This document shows, in pieces, positions 830-39,550 of a stretch of 64,000 nucleotides of DNA. A program made the translations under genes and the position numbers. Numbering within the stretch: position 1 is the first letter of the stretch; each line of letters opens with the position of its first letter. The notes under the pieces are model-generated. The model worked only from the letters and a program-made list of their open reading frames with translations. It was not told where the DNA came from and made no database searches. This DNA is from Escherichia coli (GTDB taxonomy: Bacteria; Pseudomonadota; Gammaproteobacteria; Enterobacterales; Enterobacteriaceae), in NCBI RefSeq assembly GCF_044324875.1, contig NZ_CP172185.1; one strand, given 5' to 3'.

Positions 830-1519
830 TTAAGCTGTCCGGCGGAGTGCATTTAACAGCGCCACACCAACCCCATGTGCTGAAGCGGGATTCTGCCCCG
901 TGATAAGGCGATCGTCGGTAACCACGTTTTCAGACCAGTTTGGAGCTTCATGATAAAGCGCACCATGCTCGCGAAGTGCGGTTTCAAGCAGGAAGGGAAC
1001 CACATCTGTTGTGTGAACTTCTTCCTCTTCCTTGTTGGTAAAGGCCGCCACATTTTTCCCTTTTATCAGGTATTCGCCGCTACTGAGTTTTGCGTCAACC
1101 AATGCCGCAGGCCCGTGGCAGACGGCTGAGACAATCCCATCACTTTCATACACTTCGCGGATAATACGCTGGGCATCCTGATTATCACGGAAATCCCACA
1201 TGGTCCCATGACCACCTGCAAAGAAAACTGCGCTGTAATCGGCACCTTTCAGCTCGGATAACGCAGGTGTTGTTGCCAGGCGCTGCTGAAAATCGGTTTC
1301 GTTCCAGTACCAGGCGTTAACAGGGTCGCTGAGGTTAAATCCATCCACCGGTGGCTGCCCCCCGCGAATACTGGCTATTGTTGTTTTTATTCCGGCATCT
1401 TCCAGTACTTTCAGCGGATGAGTCAGCTCGGCCAGGAAAAAACCGGTTGGTACACCGGATGCGCCTTTAATCGGATGGCTGGAAACGACACATAGCACTG
1501 GTTTATATGCAGGTTTCAT
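830..1519 (-). CDS. DJ-1/PfpI superfamily protein (class I glutamine amidotransferase-like; putative amidase/glyoxalase/hydratase)
   Basis: ORF 830..1531; start moved to ATG at 1519 (MKPAYKPV...) which has a GAGGA ribosome-binding site. Contains the nucleophile-elbow motif AVCHGP typical of DJ-1/PfpI proteins; ~229 aa. Confidence 0.75.
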   Translation of the reverse strand: MKPAYKPVLCVVSSHPIKGASGVPTGFFLAELTHPLKVLEDAGIKTTIASIRGGQPPVDGFNLSDPVNAWYWNETDFQQRLATTPALSELKGADYSAVFFAGGHGTMWDFRDNQDAQRIIREVYESDGIVSAVCHGPAALVDAKLSSGEYLIKGKNVAAFTNKEEEEVHTTDVVPFLLETALREHGALYHEAPNWSENVVTDDRLITGQNPASAHGVGVALLNALRRTA

Positions 1520-2875: not shown

Positions 2876-3166
2876 AGACGATAACGCCTCGTTCGGTATG
2901 GAGATGCATCGAATGGCATTGTGAGTTTTTTTTCACAGATGGGCGTAATCGTCAGTGGATTTTACATACAAGGATAGCGCCCACATACTGACATCATTAA
3001 TTAACGTTGGGTGAGGTTTACCGGGGGGAGGGGAAAGCGAACCAGGAGATGGAGGTGGCCAATCTGGTACGAACCGCCGCGTAGCTTGCACGGCAAAAGC
3101 TGCTGACTGATTCATCAGTTAAGCTACTGAAAGAGCGGAACACATGAACTTAAGAACAAACCCACC

Positions 3167-24470: not shown

Positions 24471-24608
24471 TAATTATCTGTCCATACAATTGCGGGTGGC
24501 AATTATCTCAACGTAATAAGTAAATTCTTATAAAGGATAGCATGTTCGCTGACAGCGGCGGCAAATAAAGATATCCTGGGAATGCTATTTTATCGTTTTC
24601 CGCGATTA

Positions 24609-24968
24609 TCATGGCTGATTCATCTGTATAACCAACCAGTGATAGATTACCGCCACGATATAACGTTGTTGTTCCTCGCTTAACGAAACACCCTGCGGAA
24701 TGTTATGCCACTTAGCCAGACAACCGCGACAACAGGTTGCAGTGGCGTGCTGAGCGATAAACACCGGATGCCCGCGCATGGGGGTTTGCTTACCGTCGTT
24801 AGCCGGTAATGCCGGAGCAAGACGTTTAGCGACAAAATCCGCCGCATGTTGTTCGATGACTGGCGCGCCTTTCTCCAGACAATACTGACGCTCTTTCACA
24901 CCCAAACGAAAGCGAGAGCGAAATTTTGAACGGGATAAACGCGCGAAGAGTGGATCGAGAGACTGCAT
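24609..24968 (-). CDS. yneG: DUF4186 protein
   Basis: 119 aa, immediately downstream of glsB in the same orientation. Confidence 0.85.
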   Translation of the reverse strand: MQSLDPLFARLSRSKFRSRFRLGVKERQYCLEKGAPVIEQHAADFVAKRLAPALPANDGKQTPMRGHPVFIAQHATATCCRGCLAKWHNIPQGVSLSEEQQRYIVAVIYHWLVIQMNQP

Positions 24969-25894
24969 TAATAAACCGAACGCCCTAATTGTTTCGTCAA
25001 TTGTTCAAGGACAGCAATGCCCGCAAGCGAGTTACCGGCATCATCCAGTTCCGGGCTCCAGACTGCGATGGCCATTTCATGCGGAACAATCGCCACAATA
25101 CCGCCACCAACGCCAGATTTTGCCGGTAGTCCCACCCGCCAGGCAAACTCCCCCGCGTTCTGGTACATACCACTGGTCGCCATCAGCGCATTAATTTGCC
25201 GCGCCTGCATCGGCGTCACCACGGGTTCATCAATATGAATAGCTTTCCCCTGATTAGCCAGAAAGACAAACGTCCGGGCCAGCTCTACACAGCTCATTTT
25301 CAGAGCGCAGTAATGAAAGTAGTTTTGCAGAACGGTTGTCACATCATGATGGAAATTGCCAAACGACTTCATCAGCCAGGCGATAGCCGCATTTCGCGCG
25401 GAATGTTCAAATTCGGAACGCGCTACCACCGTATCGTATGAAATATCAGACACACCGCTTAAGCCGCGCACGACTTCCAGCATACGTTGCCGAGGAGCGC
25501 TTAATCGCCCTTGCAACATATCGCAGACCACCAGCGCACCGGCATTAATAAACGGATTACGCGGAATACCCTGCTCCATTTCCAGTTGCACTAAAGAATT
25601 GAACGGTGATCCAGACGGATCTTTGCCGACGCGTTGCCAGATTTCCTCTTCGGAGTAATGACGCATGGCGACAACGAGACTCAGCACTTTGGAAATAGAC
25701 TGAATGGAAAAACGTTCTTGTGCATCTCCGGCCTGAAAAAGCTGTCCGTCAACTGTACAGATAGCAATGCCCAGCCGGGAACCGTCTACCGTAGCCAGCG
25801 CCGGAATATAATCCGCGACTTTACCCTGACCAATGAGCGGCCGCACTTGCCGCAAGATGTTTTCTAAAATTGCATTATCCATGGCGACTGCCAC
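24968..25894 (-). CDS. glsB: Glutaminase 2
   Basis: 308 aa, serine-beta-lactamase-like glutaminase fold, N-terminus [34 protein letters not shown]. Confidence 0.95.
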
Positions 25895-25957
25895 TTTCTA
25901 CTCCTGGACCGCAGGTCTGAAAAGACCTGCGAGTATATCAGAGCTGAATATGTAGCG

Positions 25958-27346
25958 TCAGATCCGGTCTTTCCACACCGTCTGGATATTACAGAATTCG
26001 TGTAAGCCGAAATGGGAAAGCTCACGACCAAAGCCACTCTTCTTCACGCCACCAAAGGCCACTCGCGCGTCGCTGGCACAATAACCATTGATAAACACCC
26101 CACCGCATTCCAGACGTGCCGCCATCTGTCTGGCCTGTGTTTCGTCGGTGGTGAAAATGGTCGCTGAAAGGCCGAACTCACTATCATTAGCCAGTTCCAG
26201 CGCATGTTCTGCATCTTTCGCAATGGTGATTGCCGCAACGGGGCCAAACATTTCTTCCCGAAACGCGGTCATTTCTGGGGTAACATTCGCCAGAACCGTT
26301 GGCGGATAGTAGTTACCTGCCCCAGCCATCTTTTCCCCGCCCAGTAACAAACGCGCACCCTGCGCCAGGGTTTTCTCCACCTGATGATGCAGCTCATCAC
26401 GTAAATCAAAACGAGCCATTGGTCCGAGAGTGTTCTCTTCGTCACGGGGATCGCCCATTTTCAAGGCTGCCGCAGCTGCCACAAAACGTTCGGTAAATGC
26501 CGAAGCAATTCCCTCTTCGATAATAAAGCGTTTTGCAGCTGCACAAACCTGTCCGGTATTCTGATAACGTCCGGCTACCGCCGCTTTAACCGCCAGTTCC
26601 AGATCGGCATCGTTAAGCACAATAAATGGATCCGAACCGCCCAGTTCCAGTACGCATTTTTTCAGTGCCGCTCCAGCCTGTGCGCCAATAGCCGCTCCCG
26701 CACGAACACTTCCGGTCACCGTGACAGCAGCAATGCGCGAGTCTTTAATCATCTGACTGACGCCGTCGTTGTCGGCATTCAGCCAGCCATATACGCCTTG
26801 TGGGATACCCGCATCTTTAAACACCTGGGCAATGAGCTGTGCACAGCCCATCACATTCGGCGCATGTTTAAGTAAGTAGCCGTTACCTGCAAGAATGATG
26901 GGAACCGCGCCACGCATCACCTGCCATAACGGAAAATTCCACGGCATAATCGCCAGAATTGTCCCCAACGGTCGATACTCAATAACTGCCTGCTGATTTT
27001 CCACCAGCGTAGGTTCCGCCTTCAGCATTGCCGGACCATGTTCTGCATACCAGTCACACAAATTCGCCGATTTCGCCACTTCAGCGCGCGCTTGGTTGAT
27101 TGGTTTGCCCATTTCACGGGTGATCATTTGCGCCATTTCTTCGCTACGGACACGCAGAGCCTTACCGATATCACGCAGTTTTTCAGCACGATAATCTATA
27201 TTTGTCTCGCGCCAGTCGCGAAAGCCTGCTGCCGCCAGCTGAAGTGCGTTTTCGATATCATCAGCGCCAGCCCACGGCAGCACAGAAAGTTGTTCACCGG
27301 TGGCAGGATTTATCGAAATTGCATGAGTTTCCGGAGTAATGGTCAT
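25958..27346 (-). CDS. sad: NAD-dependent succinate-semialdehyde dehydrogenase
   Basis: Aldehyde dehydrogenase family with catalytic-Cys region ([12 protein letters not shown]); start trimmed to MTITPETH to give 462 aa. Confidence 0.9.
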
Positions 27347-27446
27347 CGGGGTATCTCCTTTATGAGTCATTGTATGAAGATACGCAGATTTACTCTTGCT
27401 TTAAAATGAATAATATTAAGCCACTTATTCACGAATCGAGAATATT

Positions 27447-28322
27447 ATGGATCTGACCCAACTGGAGATGTTCAACGCGGTTGCCGAAGCTGGCAGCATA
27501 ACCCAGGCTGCAGCAAAAGTGCATCGCGTGCCGTCGAATCTCACTACCCGTCTACGCCAGCTGGAAACAGAACTGGGGGTTGATCTGTTTATTCGCGAGA
27601 ATCAGCGTTTACGTCTCTCTCCTGCCGGGCATAACTTTTTACGCTATAGCCAACAAATTCTCGCGTTAGTGGATGAAGCGCGGAGCGTTGTCGCTGGCGA
27701 TGAGCCGCAAGGTTTATTTTCTCTTGGTTCGCTGGAAAGCACCGCTGCAGTGCGCATTCCGGCCACGCTGGCGGAATTTAACCGTCGTTATCCCAAAATT
27801 CAGTTTTCACTTTCCACCGGCCCTTCCGGCACTATGCTGGAAGGTGTGCTGGAGGGAAAACTGAATGCAGCGTTTATTGATGGGCCCATTAACCATACTG
27901 CCATTGACGGGATACCGGTGTACCGCGAGGAGCTGATGATCGTCACGCCACAAGGACATGCGCCAGTAACCCGCGCCAGTCAGGTTAATGGCAGTAACAT
28001 TTATGCCTTCCGCGCCAATTGTTCGTATCGTCGCCACTTCGAGAGCTGGTTTCATGCTGACGGTGCCGCTCCGGGAACTATCCATGAGATGGAGTCTTAT
28101 CACGGAATGTTGGCCTGTGTGGTCGCAGGAGCAGGTATTGCGCTTATTCCGCGCTCTATGCTGGAAAGTATGCCGGGGCATCACCAGGTTGAAGCGTGGC
28201 CGTTAGCTGAGCAATGGCGTTGGTTAACAACCTGGCTGGTCTGGCGTCGCGGTGCGAAAACGCGTCCGCTTGAGGCATTTATTCAACTACTGGATGTGTC
28301 TGACTCGGCAAAACAGAGTTAG
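27447..28322 (+). CDS. yneJ: LysR-family regulator, divergent from sad
   Basis: 291 aa with N-terminal HTH ([32 protein letters not shown]). Confidence 0.9.
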
Positions 28323-28405
28323 CAATGAGCTATTTTTGATAGTTCTTGCGGCTAATATGCTCTATATAGTGATGCTCCGATGACTTATGACTATATGGGG
28401 CAAAT

Positions 28406-29521
28406 ATGGTTACGCCAGTAAGCATCAGCAATTACATATCTCTTCCTTATGATTTTCCCGTTCGTAATATTGCACCTCAGGTAAAAGAAGTTTTAAAGGA
28501 TTTTATTGATGCGCTAAGTACAATAATATGTGATGAAGAGTGGCGTACGTCTTTAAACATCAGCTCAGCCACAAAAAAGATATTTAATAACCTTGATAAC
28601 TTATCATATATTCAGAGAACCTCTTTCCGGGGTAACGACACGCTATACAATGAAAAAGTTCAATTTAAACTCACTTATCCTGCCAGGAATGGAAGACACA
28701 AAGAAAATATTGAATTTCAGGTAGTAATAAATTTAAGCCCTATTTATTTAGATAATTTCCGCCATGATGGGGAAATTAATATTTTTTGCGCTCCCAACCC
28801 AAAGCCTGTCACTATGGGGCGCGTATTTCAGACTGGCGTCGAGCGTGTGCTCTTTCTGTTTCTGAATGACTTTATAGAACAATTTCCAATGATCAACCCT
28901 GGCGTTCCTATCAAAAGAGCGCATACGCCACATATTGAACCCCTGCATCCGGATCACCATACCGCTGCAGATTACTTACGCCAGTTTGATTTGCTTGTCC
29001 TGAATTTTATCTCTCGCGGTAATTTTGTCATACTCCCCCGATTATGGAATAACTCTGAGGTTCACAGATGGTTCGGGAATAAAGAACCTAACTTGCTCAC
29101 CGCTATTCTCGACATAACGGACAGCGAATTAAAAGAGGATTTATTGCAAAGCCTGATGGATTCACTAGGTTCTAACAAACATGTACTACCCGAAGTCTGC
29201 ATCTGCTTTTTATCCCTTTTAACAGAACAAGATTTTCCACATTTTCAGGACTTGTTTTTATTTTTCGCCAATATGTTATTGCACTATCACCAATTTATGA
29301 ATCCCAATGAAAGTGATTTGATTGACGTGTTGATGCCAGCATCATTAAGTGATGATAAAATTATCAAACATATGGCGCGCAGGACCCTCAAACTTTTTGT
29401 AAAAAATGAAACGCCGCCAAAAGTTACTCACGAAGACCTGGTGAAAAACAGGCCTCGCTCCCCTGTCAGATCACCTATACCCGCAACCGCCAAAACGCCA
29501 GACCTCCCTGAACGTCATTAA
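28406..29521 (+). CDS. yneK: Uncharacterised protein YneK; markedly AT-rich gene
   Basis: 371-aa ORF with no recognisable motifs; visibly lower GC than neighbours. Confidence 0.8.
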   Translation: MVTPVSISNYISLPYDFPVRNIAPQVKEVLKDFIDALSTIICDEEWRTSLNISSATKKIFNNLDNLSYIQRTSFRGNDTLYNEKVQFKLTYPARNGRHKENIEFQVVINLSPIYLDNFRHDGEINIFCAPNPKPVTMGRVFQTGVERVLFLFLNDFIEQFPMINPGVPIKRAHTPHIEPLHPDHHTAADYLRQFDLLVLNFISRGNFVILPRLWNNSEVHRWFGNKEPNLLTAILDITDSELKEDLLQSLMDSLGSNKHVLPEVCICFLSLLTEQDFPHFQDLFLFFANMLLHYHQFMNPNESDLIDVLMPASLSDDKIIKHMARRTLKLFVKNETPPKVTHEDLVKNRPRSPVRSPIPATAKTPDLPERH

Positions 29522-29670
29522 ACCGTGATGTTACCGACTCTCTGACGCGGAACAGAATCAGCGTCAGAGAAACGGAAAACGCGATCCAGATCACAAATGC
29601 ATTGTATTCACATCATTAACCGTTTTAAGATCATTTCATCACTTTTTCGCAACTCACCCGATAATCTGTT

Positions 29671-30861
29671 ATGACAACAAACACTGTTTCCCGCAAAGTG
29701 GCGTGGCTACGGGTCGTTACGCTGGCAGTCGCCGCCTTCATCTTCAACACCACCGAATTTGTCCCTGTTGGCCTGCTCTCTGACATTGCGCAAAGTTTTC
29801 ACATGCAAACCGCTCAGGTCGGCATCATGTTGACGATTTATGCATGGGTAGTGGCGCTAATGTCATTGCCTTTTATGTTAATGACCAGTCAGGTTGAACG
29901 GCGCAAATTACTGATCTGCCTGTTTGTGGTGTTTATTGCCAGCCACGTACTGTCGTTTTTGTCGTGGAGCTTTACCGTTCTGGTGATCAGTCGCATTGGT
30001 GTGGCTTTTGCACATGCGATTTTCTGGTCGATTACGGCGTCTCTGGCGATCCGTATGGCTCCGGCCGGGAAGCGAGCGCAGGCATTGAGTTTAATTGCCA
30101 CCGGTACAGCACTGGCAATGGTATTAGGTTTACCTCTCGGGCGCATTGTGGGGCAGTATTTTGGCTGGCGAATGACCTTCTTCGCGATTGGTATCGGGGC
30201 GTTTATTACCCTTTTGTGCCTGATTAAGTTACTTCCCTTACTGCCCAGTGAGCATTCCGGTTCGCTGAAAAGCCTACCGCTATTATTCCGCCGCCCGGCA
30301 TTGATGAGCATTTATTTGTTAACTGTGGTGGTTGTCACCGCCCATTACACGGCATACAGCTATATCGAGCCTTTTGTGCAAAACATTGCGGGATTCAGCG
30401 CCAACTTTGCCACGGCATTACTGTTATTACTCGGTGGTGCGGGCATTATTGGCAGCGTGATTTTCGGTAAACTGGGTAATCAGTATGCGTCTGCGTTGGT
30501 AAGTACGGCGATTGCGCTGTTGCTGGTGTGCCTGGCACTGCTGCTACCTGCGGCGAACAGTGAAATACACCTCGGGGTGCTGAGTATTTTCTGGGGGATA
30601 GCGATGATGATCATCGGGCTTGGTATGCAGGTTAAAGTGCTGGCGCTGGCACCAGATGCTACCGACGTCGCGATGGCGCTATTCTCTGGGATATTTAATA
30701 TTGGAATCGGCGCGGGTGCGTTGGTAGGTAATCAGGTCAGTCTGCACTGGTCAATGTCGATGATTGGTTATGTGGGCGCGGTGCCTGCTTTTGCCGCGTT
30801 AATATGGTCAATCATCATTTTCCGCCGCTGGCCAGTGACACTCGAAGAACAGACGCAATAG
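29671..30861 (+). CDS. ydeA: MFS sugar efflux transporter
   Basis: 396 aa, 12-TM MFS architecture. Confidence 0.9.
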
Positions 30862-30864
30862 TTG

Positions 30865-30887
30865 AAAGGCCCATTCGGGCCTTTTTT
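30865..30887 (+). terminator. Rho-independent terminator after ydeA
   Basis: Hairpin AGGCCC-ATTC-GGGCCT followed by TTTTTT. Confidence 0.6.
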
Positions 30888-31551
30888 AGTGGTACGTTTT
30901 AATGATTTCCAGGATGCCGTTAATAATAAACTGCACCCCCATACATACCAGCAGGAATCCCATCAGACGGGAGATCGCTTCAATGCCCCCCTTACCCACC
31001 AGCCGCATAATTGCGCCAGAGCTGCGTAGACTTCCCCACAAAATAACCGCCACCAGGAAAAAGATCAGCGGCGGCGCAACCATCAGTACCCAATCAGCAA
31101 AGGTTGAACTCTGACGCACTGTGGACGCCGAGCTAATAATCATCGCTATGGTTCCCGGACCGGCGGTACTTGGCATTGCCAGTGGTACAAAAGCAATATT
31201 GGCGCTGGGTTCATCTTCCAGCTCTTCCGACTTGCTTTTCGCTTCCGGTGAATCAATTGCTTTCTGTTGCGGAAAGAGCATTCGAAAACCGATAAACGCG
31301 ACGATTAAGCCGCCTGCAATTCGCAGACCGGGAATCGAAATGCCAAATGTATCCATCACCAGTTGCCCGGCGTAATACGCCACCATCATGATGGCAAAGA
31401 CGTACACCGAGGCCATCAACGACTGACGATTACGTTCGGCACTGTTCATGTTGCCTGCCAGGCCAAGAAATAACGCGACAGTTGTTAATGGGTTAGCTAA
31501 CGGTAGTAACACCACCAGCCCCAGGCCAATTGCTTTAAATAAATCTAACAT
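30886..31551 (-). CDS. marC: MarC-family inner-membrane protein
   Basis: 221 aa membrane protein divergent from marRAB. Confidence 0.9.
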
Positions 31552-31663
31552 TGGTGGTTGTTATCCTGTGTATCTGGGTTATCAGCGAAAAGTATAAGGG
31601 GTAAACAACGATAAAGTGTCACTCTTTAGCTAGCCTTGCATCGCACTGACCAAAACTTGAACC

Positions 31664-31760
31664 GATTTAGCAAAACGTGGCATCGGTCAATTCATTCATT
31701 TGACTTATACTTGCCTGGGCAATATTATCCCCTGCAACTAATTACTTGCCAGGGCAACTA
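31664..31760 (+). promoter_or_regulatory. marO: marRAB promoter/operator with marbox and two MarR sites
   Basis: Marbox-like GATTTAGCAAAACGTGGCATCGGTC at 31664..31688; -35 TTGACT at 31700..31705; two near-identical MarR-site repeats TACTTGCCTGGGCAATA and TACTTGCCAGGGCAACTA overlapping the -10 region and ribosome-binding site. Confidence 0.8.
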
Positions 31761-31762
31761 AT

Positions 31763-32197
31763 GTGAAAAGTACCAGCGATCTGTTCAATGAAATTATTCC
31801 ATTGGGTCGCTTAATCCATATGGTTAATCAGAAGAAAGATCGCCTGCTTAACGAGTATCTGTCTCCGCTGGATATTACCGCGGCACAGTTTAAGGTGCTC
31901 TGCTCTATCCGCTGCGCGGCGTGTATTACTCCGGTTGAACTGAAAAAAGTGTTATCGGTCGACCTGGGGGCGCTGACCCGTATGCTGGATCGCCTGGTCT
32001 GTAAAGGCTGGGTGGAAAGGTTGCCGAACCCGAATGACAAGCGCGGCGTACTGGTAAAACTTACCACCAGCGGCGCGGCAATATGTGAACAATGCCATCA
32101 ATTAGTTGGCCAGGACCTGCACCAAGAATTAACAAAAAACCTGACGGCGGACGAAGTGGCAACACTTGAGCATTTGCTTAAGAAAGTCCTGCCGTAA
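31763..32197 (+). CDS. marR: Multiple antibiotic resistance repressor
   Basis: 144 aa from GTG start: [144 protein letters not shown]. Confidence 0.95.
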
Positions 32198-32216
32198 ACA
32201 AAAAAGAGGTATGACG

Positions 32217-32600
32217 ATGTCCAGACGCAATACTGACGCTATTACCATTCATAGCATTTTGGACTGGATCGAGGACAACCTGGAATCGCCACTGTCACTG
32301 GAGAAAGTGTCAGAGCGTTCGGGTTACTCTAAATGGCACCTGCAACGGATGTTTAAAAAAGAAACCGGTCATTCATTAGGCCAATACATCCGCAGCCGTA
32401 AGATGACGGAAATCGCGCAAAAGCTGAAGGAAAGTAACGAGCCGATACTCTATCTGGCAGAACGATATGGCTTCGAGTCGCAACAAACTCTGACCCGAAC
32501 CTTCAAAAATTACTTTGATGTTCCGCCGCATAAATACCGGATGACCAATATGCAGGGCGAATCGCGCTTTTTACATCCATTAAATCATTACAACAGCTAG
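32217..32600 (+). CDS. marA: AraC/XylS-family transcriptional activator
   Basis: Start trimmed from ORF-track 32166 to [31 protein letters not shown]... giving 127 aa. Confidence 0.95.
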
Positions 32601-32631
32601 TTGATAACGTGACAACGTCACTGAGGCAATC

Positions 32632-32850
32632 ATGAAACCACTTTTATCCGCAATTGCAGCTGCGCTTATTCTCTTTTCCGCGCAGGGCGTTGCGGAACAA
32701 ACCACGCAGCAGGTTGTTACTTCCTGTGCCAATGTCGTGGTTGTTCCCCCATCGCATGAACAACCACCGTTTGATTTAAATCACATGGGTACTGGCAGTG
32801 ATAAGTCGGATGCGCTCGGCGTGCCCTATTATAATCAACACGCTATGTAG
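32632..32850 (+). CDS. marB: MarB periplasmic small protein
   Basis: 72 aa with signal peptide MKPLLSAIAAALILFSAQGVA. Confidence 0.9.
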   Translation: MKPLLSAIAAALILFSAQGVAEQTTQQVVTSCANVVVVPPSHEQPPFDLNHMGTGSDKSDALGVPYYNQHAM

Positions 32851-32880
32851 TTTGTTCTGGCCCCGACATATCGGGGCTTA

Positions 32881-33780
32881 TTAACTTCCCACTTTTACCG
32901 CTTTACGCCACCGCAAGCCAAATACATTGATATACAGCCCGGTCATAATGAGCACCGCACCGAAAAATTGCAGACCCGTTAAGCGTTCATCCAGCAATAG
33001 TGCCGCACTTGCCAGTCCTACTACGGGCACCAGTAACGATAACGGTGCAACCCGCCAGGTTTCATAGCGTCCCAGTAACGTCCCCCAGATCCCATAACCA
33101 ACAATTGTCGCCACAAACGCCAGATACATCAGAGACAAGATGGTGGTCATATCGATAGTGACCAGACTGTGAATCATGGTTGCGGAACCATCGAGAATCA
33201 GCGAGGCAACAAAGAAGGGAATGATTGGGATTAATGCGCTCCAGATTACCAGCGACATCACCGCCGGACGCGTTGAGTGCGACATGATCTTTTTATTGAA
33301 GATGTTGCCACACGCCCAACTAAATGCTGCCGCCAGGGTCAACATAAAGCCGAGCATCGCCACATGCTGACCGTTCAGACTATCTTCGATTAACACCAGT
33401 ACGCCAAAAATCGCTAAGGCGATCCCCGCCAATTGTTTGCCATGCAGTCGCTCACCGAAAGTAAACGCGCCAAGCACGATAGTAAAAAACGCCTGTGCCT
33501 GTAACACCAACGAAGCCAGACCAGCAGGCATACCGAAGTTAATGGCACAAAAAAGAAAAGCAAACTGCGCAAAACTGATGGTTAATCCATACCCCAGCAG
33601 CAAATTCAGTGGTACTTTCGGTCGTGCGACAAAAAAGATAGCCGGAAAAGCAACCAGCATAAAGCGCAAACCGGCCAGCATCAGCGGTGGCATGTTATGA
33701 AGCCCCACTTTGATGACCACAAAATTTAGCCCCCATACGACCACTACCAGTAGCGCCAACACCCCATCTTTTCGCGACAT
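32881..33780 (-). CDS. eamA: Cysteine/O-acetylserine exporter (DMT family)
   Basis: Start trimmed to MSRKDGVLALLVVVVWGLNFVVIKVG giving 299 aa; two EamA repeats. Confidence 0.9.
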   Translation of the reverse strand: MSRKDGVLALLVVVVWGLNFVVIKVGLHNMPPLMLAGLRFMLVAFPAIFFVARPKVPLNLLLGYGLTISFAQFAFLFCAINFGMPAGLASLVLQAQAFFTIVLGAFTFGERLHGKQLAGIALAIFGVLVLIEDSLNGQHVAMLGFMLTLAAAFSWACGNIFNKKIMSHSTRPAVMSLVIWSALIPIIPFFVASLILDGSATMIHSLVTIDMTTILSLMYLAFVATIVGYGIWGTLLGRYETWRVAPLSLLVPVVGLASAALLLDERLTGLQFFGAVLIMTGLYINVFGLRWRKAVKVGS

Positions 33781-33974
33781 TCTACCGCCTCTGAATTTCA
33801 TCTTTTGTAAGCAATCAACTTAGCTGAATTTACTTTTCTTTAACAGTTGATTCGTTAGTCACCCTTTACGACGGCATTAATGCGCAAATAAGTCGCTATA
33901 CTTCGGATTTTTGCCATGCTATTTCTTTACATCTCTAAAACAAAACATAACGAAACGCACTGCCGGACAGACAA

Positions 33975-35162
33975 ATGAACTTATCCCTACGACGCTCTAC
34001 CAGCGCCCTTCTTGCCTCGTCGTTGTTATTAACCATCGGACGCGGCGCTACGCTGCCGTTTATGACCATTTACTTGAGTCGCCAGTACAGCCTGAGTGTC
34101 GATCTAATCGGTTATGCGATGACAATTGCGCTCACTATTGGCGTCGTTTTTAGCCTCGGTTTTGGTATCCTGGCGGATAAGTTCGACAAGAAACGCTATA
34201 TGTTACTGGCAATTACCGCCTTCGCCTGCGGTTTTATTGCCATTCCTTTAGTGAATAACGTGACGCTGGTGGTGCTCTTTTTTGCCCTCATTAACTGCGC
34301 CTATTCCGTTTTTGCTACTGTGTTGAAAGCCTGGTTTGCCGACAATCTTTCGTCCACCAGCAAAACGAAAATCTTCTCAATCAACTACACCATGCTCAAC
34401 ATTGGCTGGACCATCGGTCCGCCGCTCGGCACGCTGTTGGTGATGCAGAGCATCAATCTGCCCTTTTGGCTGGCAGCTATCTGTTCCGCGTTTCCCATGC
34501 TTTTCATTCAAATTTGGGTAAAGCGCAGCGAGAAAATCATCGCCACGGAAACAGCCAGTGCCTGGTCGCCGAAAGTTTTATTACAAGATAAAGCACTGTT
34601 GTGGTTTACCTGCTCTGGCTTTCTGGCTTCTTTTGTTAGCGGCGCATTTGCTTCATGCATTTCACAATATGTGATGGTGATTGCTGATGGGGATTTTGCC
34701 GAAAAGGTGGTCGCGGTTGTTCTTCCAGTGAATGCTGCCATGGTAGTTACGTTGCAATATTCCGTGGGCCGGCGACTTAACCCGGCTAACATCCGCACGC
34801 TGATGACAGCAGGCACCCTCTGTTTCGTCATCGGTCTGGTCGGTTTTATTTTTTCCGGCAACAGCCTGCTATTGTGGGGTATGTCAGCTGCGGTATTTAC
34901 TGTCGGTGAAATCATTTATGCGCCGGGCGAGTATATGTTGATTGACCATATTGCGCCGCCAGGAATGAAAGCCAGCTATTTTTCCGCTCAGTCTTTAGGC
35001 TGGCTTGGTGCGGCGATTAACCCATTAGTGAGTGGCATAGTGCTAACCAACCTGCCGCCTTCCTCGCTGTTTATCATCTTAGCGTTGGTGATCATTGCTG
35101 CGTGGGTGCTGATGTTAAAAGGAATTCGTGCAAGACCGTGGGGGCAGCCCGCGCTTTGTTGA
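33975..35162 (+). CDS. ydeE: MFS transporter (dipeptide exporter family)
   Basis: 395 aa, 12-TM MFS. Confidence 0.9.
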   Translation: MNLSLRRSTSALLASSLLLTIGRGATLPFMTIYLSRQYSLSVDLIGYAMTIALTIGVVFSLGFGILADKFDKKRYMLLAITAFACGFIAIPLVNNVTLVVLFFALINCAYSVFATVLKAWFADNLSSTSKTKIFSINYTMLNIGWTIGPPLGTLLVMQSINLPFWLAAICSAFPMLFIQIWVKRSEKIIATETASAWSPKVLLQDKALLWFTCSGFLASFVSGAFASCISQYVMVIADGDFAEKVVAVVLPVNAAMVVTLQYSVGRRLNPANIRTLMTAGTLCFVIGLVGFIFSGNSLLLWGMSAAVFTVGEIIYAPGEYMLIDHIAPPGMKASYFSAQSLGWLGAAINPLVSGIVLTNLPPSSLFIILALVIIAAWVLMLKGIRARPWGQPALC

Positions 35163-35288
35163 TTTAAGTCGAACACAATAAAAATTTAATTCAGCCTTCG
35201 TTTAGGTTACCTCTGCTAATATCTTTCTCATTGAGATGAAAATTAAGGTAAGCGAGGAAACACACCACACCATAAACGGAGGCAAATA

Positions 35289-35384
35289 ATGCTGGGTAAT
35301 ATGAATGTTTTTATGGCCGTACTGGGAATAATTTTATTTTCTGGTTTTCTGGCCGCGTATTTCAGCCACAAATGGGATGACTAA
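35289..35384 (+). CDS. mgtS: 31-aa small membrane protein MgtS
   Basis: Not in ORF track (under 60 aa). ATG at 35289 encodes MLGNMNVFMAVLGIILFSGFLAAYFSHKWDD, matching the known small protein. Confidence 0.85.
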   Translation: MLGNMNVFMAVLGIILFSGFLAAYFSHKWDD

Positions 35385-35411
35385 TGAACGGAGATAATCC
35401 CTCACCTAACC

Positions 35412-35450
35412 GGCCCCTTGTTACAGTTGTGTACAAGGGGCCTGATTTTT
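35412..35450 (+). terminator. Rho-independent terminator after mgtS
   Basis: Stem GGCCCCTT...AAGGGGCC followed by a T-rich tract. Confidence 0.5.
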
Positions 35451-35451
35451 A

Positions 35452-35560
35452 TGACGGCAAAAAAAAACCGCCAGTAAACCGGCGGTGAATGCTTGCATGG
35501 ATAGATTTGTGTTTTGCTTTTACGCTAACAGGCATTTTCCTGCACTGATAACGGATCGTT
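35452..35560 (-). ncRNA. mgrR: Candidate small RNA (MgrR-like) in the mgtS–dgcZ intergenic region; boundaries approximate
   Basis: On the minus strand a GC hairpin (CCGCC...GGCGG) is followed by nine T's at about 35452..35486, i.e. a strong terminator about 120–150 nt downstream of the dgcZ stop. K-12 has the sRNA MgrR in this intergenic region; its sequence was not recalled, so strand and coordinates are inferred. Confidence 0.3.
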
Positions 35561-35602
35561 GACACAGTAGCATCAGTTTTCTCAATGAATGTTAAACGGA
35601 GC

Positions 35603-36493
35603 TTAAACTCGGTTAATCACATTTTGTTCGTCAATAAACATACAGCGATTTCTTCCGGTTTGCTTACCCTCATACATTGCCCGGTCCGCTCTTCCAATGA
35701 CCACATCCAGAGGTTCTTCAGGAAATGCGCGACTCACACCTGCAGTCACGGTAATGTTGATATGCCCTTCAGAATGTGTGATGGCATGGTTATCGACTAA
35801 CTGGCAAATTCTGATACCTGCACGACATGCTTCTTCATCATTAGCCGCTTTGACAATAATGATAAATTCTTCGCCACCGTAGCGATAAACCGTTTCGTAA
35901 TCGCGCGTCCAACTGGCTAAGTAAGTTGCCAGGGTGCGTAATACTACATCGCCGATTAAATGCCCGTAGGTATCATTAACCAATTTAAATCGGTCAATAT
36001 CCAACAACATTAAATAAAGATTCAGAGGCTCAGCGTTGCGTAACTGATGATCAAAGGATTCATCAAGAACCCGACGACCCGGCAATCCCGTCAAAACATC
36101 CATATTGCTACGGATCGTCAGCAAATAAATTTTGTAATCGGTTAATGCCGCAGTAAAAGAAAGCAACCCTTCCTGAAAGGCGTCGAAATGCGCGTCCTGC
36201 CAGTGATTTTCAACAATAGCCAACATTAATTCCCGACCACAGTTATGCATATGTTGATGGGCAGAATCCATTAGCCGAACGTAAGGTAATTCATCGTTAT
36301 CGAGTGGTCCCAGATGATCAATCCACCGACCAAACTGGCACAGTCCATAAGAATGGTTATCCGTTATTTCTGGCTTACTGGCATCTCTCGCGACCACGCT
36401 GTGAAACATACTCACCAGCCACTGGTAGTGGGCATCGATAGCCTTATTGAGATTTAACAAGATGGCATCAATTTCCGTTGTCTTCTTGATCAT
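35603..36493 (-). CDS. dgcZ: Zinc-sensing diguanylate cyclase
   Basis: Start trimmed to MIKKTTEIDAILLNLNKAIDAHYQWLV giving 296 aa; GGDEF domain with RYGGEEF. Confidence 0.9.
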   Translation of the reverse strand: MIKKTTEIDAILLNLNKAIDAHYQWLVSMFHSVVARDASKPEITDNHSYGLCQFGRWIDHLGPLDNDELPYVRLMDSAHQHMHNCGRELMLAIVENHWQDAHFDAFQEGLLSFTAALTDYKIYLLTIRSNMDVLTGLPGRRVLDESFDHQLRNAEPLNLYLMLLDIDRFKLVNDTYGHLIGDVVLRTLATYLASWTRDYETVYRYGGEEFIIIVKAANDEEACRAGIRICQLVDNHAITHSEGHINITVTAGVSRAFPEEPLDVVIGRADRAMYEGKQTGRNRCMFIDEQNVINRV

Positions 36494-36747
36494 TGCCACT
36501 CCTTTTTCACAGTTCCTTGTGCGCGCTATTCTAACGAGAGAAAAGCAAAATTACGTCAATATTTTCATAGAAATCCGAAGTTATGAGTCATCTCTGAGAT
36601 AACATTGTGATTTGAAACAAAATCAGCAGATAAAAAAGTGTTTAATTCTGTAAATTAAGCCTGCATTATCGCAATTAAAAGGATGACAAATAGCATAAAC
36701 CAATACCCTAATGGCCCAGTAGTTCAGGCCATCAGGCTCATTTATTT

Positions 36748-37140
36748 TTATTTCTGCAAATGAGTGACCCGAACGACGGCCGGCGCGCTTTTCTTATCCA
36801 GACTGCCGCTAATGTTGATCATCTGGTCCGGCTGAACTTCTCGTCCATCAAAGACTGCCGCAGGAATAACAACATTAATTTCACCGCTCTTATCGCGAAA
36901 AACGTAACGGTTCTCTCCTTTGTGAGAAATCAAATTACCGCGTAGTGAAACCGAAGCGCCATCATGCATGGTTTTTGCGAAATCTACGGTCATTTTTTTT
37001 GCATCATCGGTTCCGCGATAGCCATCTTCTATTGCATGAGGCGGCGGTGGCGCTGCATCCTGTTTTAAACCGCCCTGGTCATCTGCCAACGCATAAGGCA
37101 TGACAAGAAAACTTGCTAATACAATGGCCTGAAATTTCAT
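36748..37140 (-). CDS. ydeI: Periplasmic OB-fold (YgiW/BOF family) stress protein
   Basis: 130 aa with signal peptide [19 protein letters not shown]. Confidence 0.9.
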
Positions 37141-37385
37141 ACTGACTCCTTAATTGCGTTTGGTTTGACTTATTAAGTCTGGTTGCTATTTTTATAATTG
37201 ACAAATAAGAATACTGCCAATTGTTATAAGGCATTTAAAATCAGGCAACTAGCTGTCAAATATTAAGAGAATTTAACTCACTAAAGTAAGAAGAAGATTA
37301 AAGAGTCTTAAACATATTTCAGAACAATCAGATTTATAAATTTGAAAATTATTATAACGGAAGGGTATACAAAAAAAGTAATTTT

Positions 37386-37460
37386 GCTGGCGACTGCGAA
37401 ACGGCATTCGCATTAGCGGTGAAGTTTGCCCCCACCCAGCTGCTGCAATTACTGCTCTAA
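37386..37460 (+). pseudogene. ydeJ: Possible 3'-terminal remnant of ydeJ (CinA-like) after an AT-rich replacement
   Basis: No ORF of 60 aa or more between ydeI and dcp. GC-rich ~75 bp ending in TAA (...AGDCETAFALAVKFAPTQLLQLLL*) follows ~240 bp of very AT-rich sequence with an abrupt composition shift near 37385. ydeJ identity is by position only. Confidence 0.3.
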
Positions 37461-37504
37461 CCAGGCTGGCCTGGCGATATCTCCAGGCCAGCCATTGGTG
37501 GTGT

Positions 37505-39550
37505 TTATATGTTCAAGCCACGATGTTGCAGCATCGGCATAATCTGAGGTGCCTTACCGCGCCATTGTCGATACAGGCGTTCCAGATCTTCGCTGTTACC
37601 TCTGGAAAGAATCGCCTCGCGAAAACGCCGCCCATTTTCACGCGTTAATCCGCCCTGCTCAACAAACCACTGGTAACCATCATCGGCCAACATTTGCGTC
37701 CACAGATAAGCGTAATAACCTGCGGCATATCCGCCACCAAAAATATGGGCGAAATAACTGCTGCGATAGCGTGGCGGTATAGCGGGAAGATCCATATTTT
37801 CTGCCACCAGCGCCCGCAATTCGAAATCATCGACATCCTGCATTGCTTCGTTTTCTTCCAGGCAATGCCAGCGCATATCGAGAAGTGCGGCGCTAAGCAG
37901 TTCGCTCATCTCATACCCTTTATTGAACAGGCTGGCATTACGCATTTTCTGTTGCAGTTCGTCAGGCATTGCTGCCCCGCTCTGATAATGCCGGGCGTAG
38001 CGAGCGAATACCTGCGGATGCGTTGCCCAGTGTTCGTTGATTTGCGACGGAAATTCGACAAAATCACGCGGCGTGTTGGTGCCGGAAAGTGTGGCATAAC
38101 GCTGGCGGGCAAAGAGGCCGTGCAACGTATGACCAAATTCATGGAATAAGGTTATGACATCATCCCAGAGTAACAACGCAGGCTCACCGGCAGCGGGTTT
38201 CTGATAATTGCAGACGTTATAAATTACCGGATGCGTTTCATTAAGCGTTGATTGCTCAACAAAATTGCCCATCCATGCACCGCCGCTTTTTGAATCACGG
38301 GCGAAGAAATCACCGTAAAATAACGCCAGCCCCACGCCATTATGATCAAAAATTTCCCATACACGAACGTCAGGATGGTAGACAGGAATATCAAAACGTT
38401 CGACAAACTTAATACCGAAGAGCTGATTCGCGGTCCAGAATACACCTTCATTCAACACCGTGTTTAATTCAAAATATGGCTTGAGCTGCGATTCATCGAG
38501 ATCGAATTTCTCACGTCTTACCTGCTCGGCATAAAATGCCCAGTCCCACGGCTGCGCGCTAAACCCGCCCTGCTGCTTATCGATAACCGCCTGTATGGAG
38601 GCTAATTCATCGCTCGCACGTTGACGCGCCGCTGGAACAATTTCCCGCATAAAGTTGAGTGCTGCTTCTGGCGTTTTTGCCATCTGATCGGCGATTTTCC
38701 ATGCGGCATAATGAGGGAAACCAAGCAGTTTCGCCTGCTGCGCGCGGATCTCCACCAGACGTTGAATGATAGCGCGGGTATCATTGGCATCATTTTTTTC
38801 CGCTCGCGTCCAGCCCGCAGTGAACAGTTTTTCACGCGTCGCGCGATCGCGCAGTTCAGCAAGCGCTGGTTGCTGGGTGGTATTCAGCAACGGAATCAGC
38901 CATTTGTTATCCAGACCTTTCTCGCGAGCCGCCTCTGCCGCCAGCGCAATCTCTTGCTCACTCATTCCTGCCAGCTGCGCGAAATCGTTCACAACCAGAC
39001 CGCCGGATTTATTTGCTGCCAGTAACCGCTGGTTAAACTGGCTGGTCAGGGTCGCAGCTTCTGTATTCAGGACTTTTAATTTTGCTTTATCAGCTTGTGC
39101 AAGTTTGGCTCCGGCAAGGACAAAACGTTGATGAATGACCTCCACCAGGCGGATGGATTCACTATCAAGTCCCAGGGATTCACGGCGTTGCCAGACAGCA
39201 TCTACCCGCGCGAATAATTCACCGTTCAGATAGATATCATTAGCCAGTTCCGCCAGTTCAGCGGAAAACTGTTCATCAAGACGCTGTAATTCATCATTAG
39301 TATGCGCCGCAGTCATCGCAAAAAAGACGCTGGTAACGCGGGTAAGTAATTCTCCGCTTTGTTCCAGTGCCAGAATAGTATTGTTGAAATCAGGTGTTTG
39401 CGGGTTAAGCGCGATGGCAGCAATTTCTGCCCGCTTTTGCTGCATTCCCTCATCGAATGCCGGGCGATAGTGATGATTGGCAATTTGATCAAAATGGGGA
39501 GCCAGATACGGCAGTGTGCTTTGCACAAGGAAAGGATTCATTGTTGTCAT
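37505..39550 (-). CDS. dcp: Dipeptidyl carboxypeptidase II (M3 zinc metallopeptidase)
   Basis: Start trimmed to MTTMNPFLVQ giving 681 aa; HEXXH motif HEFGH. Confidence 0.95.
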   Translation of the reverse strand: MTTMNPFLVQSTLPYLAPHFDQIANHHYRPAFDEGMQQKRAEIAAIALNPQTPDFNNTILALEQSGELLTRVTSVFFAMTAAHTNDELQRLDEQFSAELAELANDIYLNGELFARVDAVWQRRESLGLDSESIRLVEVIHQRFVLAGAKLAQADKAKLKVLNTEAATLTSQFNQRLLAANKSGGLVVNDFAQLAGMSEQEIALAAEAAREKGLDNKWLIPLLNTTQQPALAELRDRATREKLFTAGWTRAEKNDANDTRAIIQRLVEIRAQQAKLLGFPHYAAWKIADQMAKTPEAALNFMREIVPAARQRASDELASIQAVIDKQQGGFSAQPWDWAFYAEQVRREKFDLDESQLKPYFELNTVLNEGVFWTANQLFGIKFVERFDIPVYHPDVRVWEIFDHNGVGLALFYGDFFARDSKSGGAWMGNFVEQSTLNETHPVIYNVCNYQKPAAGEPALLLWDDVITLFHEFGHTLHGLFARQRYATLSGTNTPRDFVEFPSQINEHWATHPQVFARYARHYQSGAAMPDELQQKMRNASLFNKGYEMSELLSAALLDMRWHCLEENEAMQDVDDFELRALVAENMDLPAIPPRYRSSYFAHIFGGGYAAGYYAYLWTQMLADDGYQWFVEQGGLTRENGRRFREAILSRGNSEDLERLYRQWRGKAPQIMPMLQHRGLNI

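Follow-up and report, generated by a model that had tools for sequence, protein, structure and literature searches.

The 440-bp region between ydeE and dgcZ in this Escherichia coli genome is almost certainly best explained as two convergent PhoP-activated units, the mgtS mRNA on the plus strand and the small RNA MgrR on the minus strand, and these low-Mg2+ transcription units would occupy the intergenic region wholly. It is the known mgtS–mgtT/MgrR low-Mg2+ stress locus, the essentials of which are already annotated and published. Here, we read the region 35163-35602 of the window (the whole 64,000-nt stretch of DNA that was analysed) directly, with open reading frames (ORFs) listed down to 20 aa, and base the assignment on identity to annotated genes, family matches, the stability and covariation of hairpins, and the fact that both promoters are conserved. 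From the literature we take the dependence on PhoQP, the binding of Hfq, the targets, the stabilisation of MgtA, the translation of MgtT and the presence of RNase III-dependent double-stranded RNA (dsRNA) over mgrR.

The identity of the locus follows from the K-12 annotation, in which the genes of interest are placed as listed here; subtracting 1587357 from a K-12 coordinate gives the window coordinate.

K-12 MG1655 1622646..1622741, plus strand: mgtS
K-12 MG1655 1622741..1622845, plus strand: mgtT (b4775)
K-12 MG1655 1622817..1622914, minus strand: mgrR ncRNA (b4698)
K-12 MG1655 1622960..1623850, minus strand: dgcZ

Of 5426 complete E. coli genomes, 5416 contain a 601-nt query covering the locus, and the PGAP annotation beneath it names ydeE, mgtS, mgtT and dgcZ. 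K-12 and the window are collinear over 24536 to 37378, with an identity of about 97.7% over the collinear block, and the strain is not K-12. Alignment of the 471 nt at 35150..35620 reveals three SNPs relative to K-12. The one at 35183 is the only one upstream of the mgtS promoter. The second, at 35459, is an A here and a G in K-12; it extends the U tail of MgrR from eight to nine and, being the same SNP, also causes the E26K exchange in MgtT. The third, at 35554, gives a C instead of a U at nt 4 of MgrR, and this C is the Rfam consensus base. Further out, the window is no longer collinear with K-12 ahead of 24536 and past 44464 (the Qin prophage side), and it lacks 474 bp at about 37378..37381 (K-12-equivalent 37378..37854), which removes most of ydeJ. 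At the ydeE end, a terminator-like hairpin on the plus strand at 35137..35153, CGTGGGGGCAGCCCGCG followed by CTTTGTTGAT, overlaps the last ydeE codons and stop (35160..35162) and is probably the ydeE terminator.

For comparison across species, an 18-nt MgrR seed pattern was run once against 100,044 species genomes and returned 115 stretches, from which 100 unique sequences with an MgrR-like terminator (99 loci and the window) were assembled, leaving out loci too short to extract. A handful of the matches are chance or contamination, and the true MgrR loci belong to about 20 genera of the Enterobacteriaceae.

The plus strand carries the following features.

35189..35205, plus strand: PhoP-box-like direct repeat ATTCAG-ccttc-GTTTAG of mgtS, 11 nt upstream of the -10
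35217..35222, plus strand: mgtS -10 hexamer TAATAT, with TAnTAT conserved in the cross-genus alignment
35236..35289, plus strand: CDS58, a 17-aa upstream ORF MKIKVSEETHHTINGGK with a TAA stop that overlaps the mgtS ATG (TAATG)
35243..35257, plus strand: purine-rich element TAAGGTAAGnGAGG in the mgtS 5' UTR
35278..35282, plus strand: mgtS Shine-Dalgarno GGAGG, 6 nt before the ATG, with GGAG conserved across genera
35289..35384, plus strand: mgtS, encoding the 31-aa inner-membrane protein MgtS (YneM), MLGNMNVFMAVLGIILFSGFLAAYFSHKWDD
35384..35488, plus strand: mgtT, a 34-aa ORF (b4775 in K-12)
35412..35452, plus strand: mgtS intrinsic terminator, a stem-loop at 35412..35442 followed by the U tract UGAUUUUUAU at 35443..35452, within the mgtT ORF

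The 31-aa MgtS named in the initial annotation is an exact match. Its DNA is identical to K-12 mgtS, and the protein scores 80.6 bits against NCBIfam NF033842 (cut-off 35) and 88.2 bits against Pfam PF22865 (cut-off 27), in both cases over residues 1-31 of 31. Protein, ribosome binding site and promoter are thus those of the known gene, and 100% identity of the protein extends as far as Atlantibacter and several Citrobacter. MgtS stabilises the MgtA Mg2+ importer and raises intracellular Mg2+, according to the literature. The initial inventory of the locus was incomplete; mgtT, CDS58 and both promoters had been missed.

The half-sites of the mgtS PhoP box and their spacing are both conserved in the alignment of mgtS loci from about nine genera. 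A search for PhoP boxes had been proposed for the locus, and it proves positive for the mgtS as well as the mgrR promoter: both carry the arrangement (T/G)GTTTA-N5-(T/G)GTTTA about 11-12 bp before the -10 (11 nt in each case), with one degenerate half-site each, and both are conserved. From the -10 hexamer, we infer that mgtS transcription starts near 35229-35230. Earlier studies describe transcription of mgtS (yneM) as PhoQP-dependent, with PhoP-dependent mgrR and yneM fusions, and the convergent transcription of mgtS and mgrR as PhoPQ-dependent. The plus-strand PhoP-box promoter would drive a short mRNA on which three tandem small ORFs, CDS58 (17 aa), mgtS (31 aa) and mgtT (34 aa), are joined by TAATG overlaps.

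The leader of this mRNA contains both a short ORF and a conserved element. CDS58 is identical in sequence to the CDS58 of PIRT-Seq (PMC12350097, supplement file 5), where it gave a weak western signal. E. albertii and E. whittamii lack its start codon, and its frame differs in Citrobacter, so that CDS58 is, as judged from these alignments, an ORF of E. coli only. The purine-rich element is conserved across about nine genera whereas the surrounding ORF is not, and the missing ATG and differing frame also rule out CDS58 coding as the cause of the 5' UTR conservation. RNAalifold predicted no conserved base pairs in the mgtS 5' UTR, whose minimum free energy in E. coli is only -4.1 kcal/mol. Pairing of the element with a conserved 3' UTR stretch was likewise rejected (RNAduplex against shuffles, mean z of +0.6 over 32 loci). 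The two GGA motifs, one in the element and one in the Shine-Dalgarno, might form a CsrA or a standby site.

Where does the mgtS transcript end? A plus-strand stem-loop had been noted at 35412..35450, and we find it at 35412..35442 with its U tract reaching 35452. It folds with -22.6 kcal/mol, for a z of -3.3 relative to shuffled sequences. Across 32 unique orthologous loci from about nine genera all 9 of the 9 consensus pairs are kept, with compensatory changes on both sides in 7 of the 9 and none broken. The hairpin is present in all 32 non-Kluyvera sequences, always with the T run next on the plus strand, and on the minus strand the sequence that follows it reads GGUUAGGUGAGGG, with no U tract. 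A terminator scan of 35000..35800 gave two sites against 0.8 expected from shuffles, and missed this hairpin because of its bulge. On the covarying pairs and the invariant T run, the stem-loop is to be regarded as the mgtS terminator. The mgtS mRNA would end mostly there, inside mgtT.

The mgtT ORF runs through this terminator. Its start overlaps the mgtS stop by one base (the TAATG junction at 35382..35386), and it stops at 35488, 29 nt into MgrR on the opposite strand. The 34-aa product matches Pfam PF23498 with 92.2 bits (cut-off 27) over residues 1-34 of 34, and compared with MgtT of K-12 the ORF and the TAATG overlap are the same and only E26K differs. A simple picture in which transcription terminates at the hairpin cannot explain full-length MgtT. 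A transcript ending there has no mgtT stop codon, and full-length MgtT would therefore require read-through of the mgtS terminator.

Whether MgtT acts as a protein has to be weighed against how it varies. The gene was found by initiation-complex ribosome profiling and tagging and detected independently by PIRT-Seq (PMC12350097), and it is described as belonging to an mgtS-mgtT operon induced by low Mg2+ via PhoQP. The overlapping ATG is kept in all 32 loci that have the plus-strand hairpin, and the third codon positions are slightly more variable than the others (entropies of 0.64, 0.77 and 0.98 by codon position), a difference too small to tell coding from non-coding sequence. These points favour the reading that MgtT has a function of its own in the Mg2+ response, as a small protein acting in trans, which we nevertheless regard as rather unlikely. 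Across the 32 unique loci the ORF ranges from 7 to 83 aa, the C-termini are unrelated outside Escherichia, and the shared portion comprises only the first approximately six residues, M-N-x-D-N/S-P; conservation of MgtT as a protein beyond Escherichia was thus not found in these loci, in contrast to MgtS, which in the same loci is up to 100% identical. The family PF23498 would in effect be Escherichia-specific. The conserved middle of MgtT, the RPL...KGP segment, largely coincides with the terminator stem, whose covariation at the RNA level changes the amino acids, and the conserved TRATGA at the junction also provides mgtS with a tandem in-frame stop. According to the literature, no phenotype results from deleting or overexpressing mgtT. 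Taken together, MgtT is translated in E. coli and is probably not a conserved functional protein.

The terminators of mgtS and MgrR lie tail to tail, 6 nt apart, and published transcript data bear on what happens between them. At K-12 1622816, which is 35459 in the window, a read boundary that depends on RNase III has been mapped and attributed to sense/antisense pairing of yneM and mgrR transcripts, and a p19-captured dsRNA cluster has been reported over mgrR at U00096.2 1620782..1620946. The RNase III-dependent reads and the captured duplexes together mean that some convergent read-through occurs between the mgtS and mgrR units. Placed with an offset of +1976 between the genome versions, which is consistent with rydC, the cluster corresponds to window 35401..35565. 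Convergent genes with tail-to-tail terminators and RNase III-processed 3' overlaps, such as RyeA/SdsR and the small RNA loci of the p19 dsRNA set, are alike in this respect. The locus differs from the shared bidirectional-hairpin arrangement in that each unit has its own unidirectional terminator; Kluyvera alone has the MgrR hairpin serving both units.

In all 32 loci with the plus-strand hairpin, an mgtT-type mini-ORF ends at, inside or beyond the terminator stem. Possibly, then, the conserved feature after mgtS is not the MgtT protein but a cis-acting mini-ORF whose ribosome runs into the mgtS terminator, such that reinitiation at TAATG would melt the terminator and send transcription antisense over mgrR. 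We consider this improbable. If true, it would couple translation of mgtS to the level of MgrR via RNase III cleavage of the duplex.

The minus strand is organised as follows.

35608..35603, minus strand: third GTTTAA half-site, lying upstream at 11 bp from its neighbour and containing the last codon and stop of dgcZ
35598..35581, minus strand: mgrR PhoP box cGTTTAA-cattc-ATTGAG (GTTTAA-N5-ATTGAG, 35597..35581), 11 nt upstream of the -10
35572..35564, minus strand: mgrR extended -10 TGcTACTGT, with the annotated 5' end G35557 located 7 nt downstream
35557..35460, minus strand: MgrR small RNA, 98 nt (from K-12 annotation, alignment, Rfam and fold); the U tail can reach 35459 here
35553..35523, minus strand: MgrR 5' stem-loop, nt 5-35 (fold, Rfam structure line and probing in PMC6239178)
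35522..35506, minus strand: A-rich (ARN)n Hfq distal-face motif of MgrR, nt 36-52 (PMC6239178, sequence and conservation)
35503..35490, minus strand: MgrR seed UAUCCAUGCAAGCA, nt U55-A68 in the numbering of PMC6239178, identical to K-12
35486..35459, minus strand: MgrR intrinsic terminator, with the hairpin at 35486..35467, the nine-T run at 35467..35459 and an Hfq-binding U tail

The initial annotation had described a GC hairpin with a nine-T run on the minus strand at about 35452..35486 and had suggested that it ends a minus-strand transcript, naming as candidates the PhoP-regulated MgrR and the dgcZ 3' UTR. The hairpin and the T run are there, as located, and the first candidate is the right one: alignment with K-12 mgrR, the check put forward at the time, places the gene at 35460..35557 on the minus strand, the same position and strand, with one SNP within the RNA. 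Neighbours, seed, A-rich motif, terminator and PhoP-box promoter are likewise those of E. coli MgrR. Rfam RF01407 (STnc560), the sole Rfam family matched in the whole window, gives a full-length match at 35378..35591 on the minus strand (281.1 bits, E = 9e-66, gathering score 55). This 214-nt model is more than twice as long as the mature RNA, so that the boundaries of the match do not define the small RNA; the match also takes in the mgrR promoter, the terminator of mgtS and, in antisense, the mgtS stop. A match to Rfam Hrs13 was discarded as chance, at 16 bits where the gathering score is 52.

The RNA has the architecture of an Hfq-type small RNA, with a terminator and U tail, the ARN motif and a single-stranded seed at U55-A68, and both motif and seed are identical to those in PMC6239178. 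Its terminator hairpin has 8 pairs (6 of them G-C) and a 4-nt loop, folds with -14.4 kcal/mol (z = -3.4 against shuffles) and is at least 90% conserved in the 100 loci. For the use of its U tract in vivo, the annotated MgrR 3' end at 35460 and the RNase III-dependent boundary at 35459 give indirect evidence. MgrR is known to be Hfq-dependent and to repress eptB and ygdQ, with which the seed pairs (PMC6239178). A transcript of 98 nt would thus start from a promoter abutting the dgcZ stop and comprise, in order, the 5' stem-loop, the A-rich Hfq site, the seed and the terminator with its U tail.

The mgrR promoter is similarly well conserved. In the 100 sequences, CGTTTA at 35598..35593 is at least 90% conserved; in ATTGA at 35586..35582 the same level holds for the two T, and the A, G and A reach 60-80%; and in the extended -10 the TG at 35572..35571, the TA at 35569..35568 and the T at 35564 are again at least 90% conserved. 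An exact GTTTA-N6-GTTTA at 35608..35593, the sole one in the window (0.15 expected), was rejected as the mgrR PhoP box: the third half-site at 35603..35608, its upstream half, is Escherichia-specific in the 100-locus alignment, and the conserved box is the one at 35598..35581. A loose search for KGTTTA-N5-KGTTTA with two mismatches, which is uninformative alone, gave 17 matches in the window against 16 expected, one of them the MgrR terminator. The PhoP dependence of mgrR itself, and promoter fusions starting at MgrR +10, are reported in the literature.

The extent of the Rfam match raises the question of whether the plus-strand stem-loop might instead be the 3' part of a longer MgrR/STnc560 transcript of about 214 nt, rather than the mgtS terminator. 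The consensus structure of RF01407 takes in this hairpin, its minus-strand fold is equally good (-23.2 kcal/mol), and the published dsRNA reads extend to about 35401. We deem this very improbable: it is on the plus strand that a T run follows the stem-loop, without exception in the 32 loci, the RNA is annotated with a length of 98 nt, and a transcript in the minus-strand direction would meet MgrR's own terminator with its eight or nine U before it reached the stem-loop. Moreover, Kluyvera has MgrR and lacks the plus-strand hairpin. The stem-loop is thus better regarded as the terminator of mgtS.

That the minus-strand hairpin serves only as the terminator of dgcZ mRNA, as its 3' UTR and with no separate small RNA gene, is scarcely tenable, because, although the scan shows no terminator-like site between the dgcZ stop (35603) and the hairpin, the PhoP box and extended -10 situated 7 nt ahead of the 5' end annotated for MgrR are conserved in 100 loci, many of which have another upstream gene, and the RF01407 match, the K-12 ncRNA annotation and the published Northern blots and fusions all argue for a gene of its own. 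What survives of the dgcZ 3' UTR proposal is at most an additional use of the MgrR terminator: dgcZ has no terminator of its own, and its read-through transcripts therefore probably also end there.

How widely is the convergent arrangement shared? The genes mgtS and mgrR face each other in 37 representative unique loci, which belong to Escherichia, Salmonella, Citrobacter, Kosakonia, Phytobacter, Atlantibacter, Yokenella, Pluralibacter and Kluyvera. In five Kluyvera loci mgtS has neither a hairpin of its own nor the overlapping ATG, and between its stop, which abuts the MgrR terminator, and the match to the MgrR seed there are 34-58 nt (mostly 36-37 nt); mgtS must therefore use or cross the MgrR hairpin there, and the transcripts must overlap. 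In loci of Enterobacter, Klebsiella, Raoultella, Lelliottia, Leclercia and others, MgrR is present with its PhoP-box promoter; in those of the five named genera no mgtS was found within 360 nt of MgrR, and the upstream gene differs, in Klebsiella and Raoultella ending in ...ALVEKL*. In the genomes scanned, the pairing of mgtS with mgrR thus appears confined to part of the Enterobacteriaceae.

Some individual genomes stand out in the survey. Enterobacteriaceae bacterium RIT691 has two MgrR copies (1436..1453 and 3030..3047) 1.6 kb apart, each with an mgtS-type hairpin and together flanking two ORFs of 127 and 177 aa. The PhoP box is absent from the mgtS-adjacent copy and present in the other, and the arrangement looks like an insertion with target duplication. 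Outside the family, a metagenome-assembled genome labelled 'Caldithrix sp.' contains E. coli-like mgtS-mgrR DNA and 'Chryseobacterium sp. 18061' contains mgtS-mgrR DNA like that of Citrobacter sp. 18056; both are most likely assembly contamination.

In conclusion, the locus adds little for discovery, and its use lies in calibration, as a gene of less than 60 aa and a small RNA terminator were recovered from raw sequence. It is a textbook locus of the PhoQ/PhoP low-Mg2+ regulon, with MgtS as the stabiliser of the MgtA importer and MgrR as a regulator of LPS modification by way of eptB. Within it, mgtT is the ORF that crosses the terminator of its own operon into mgrR, a stretch that is not conserved as protein and over which dsRNA forms.
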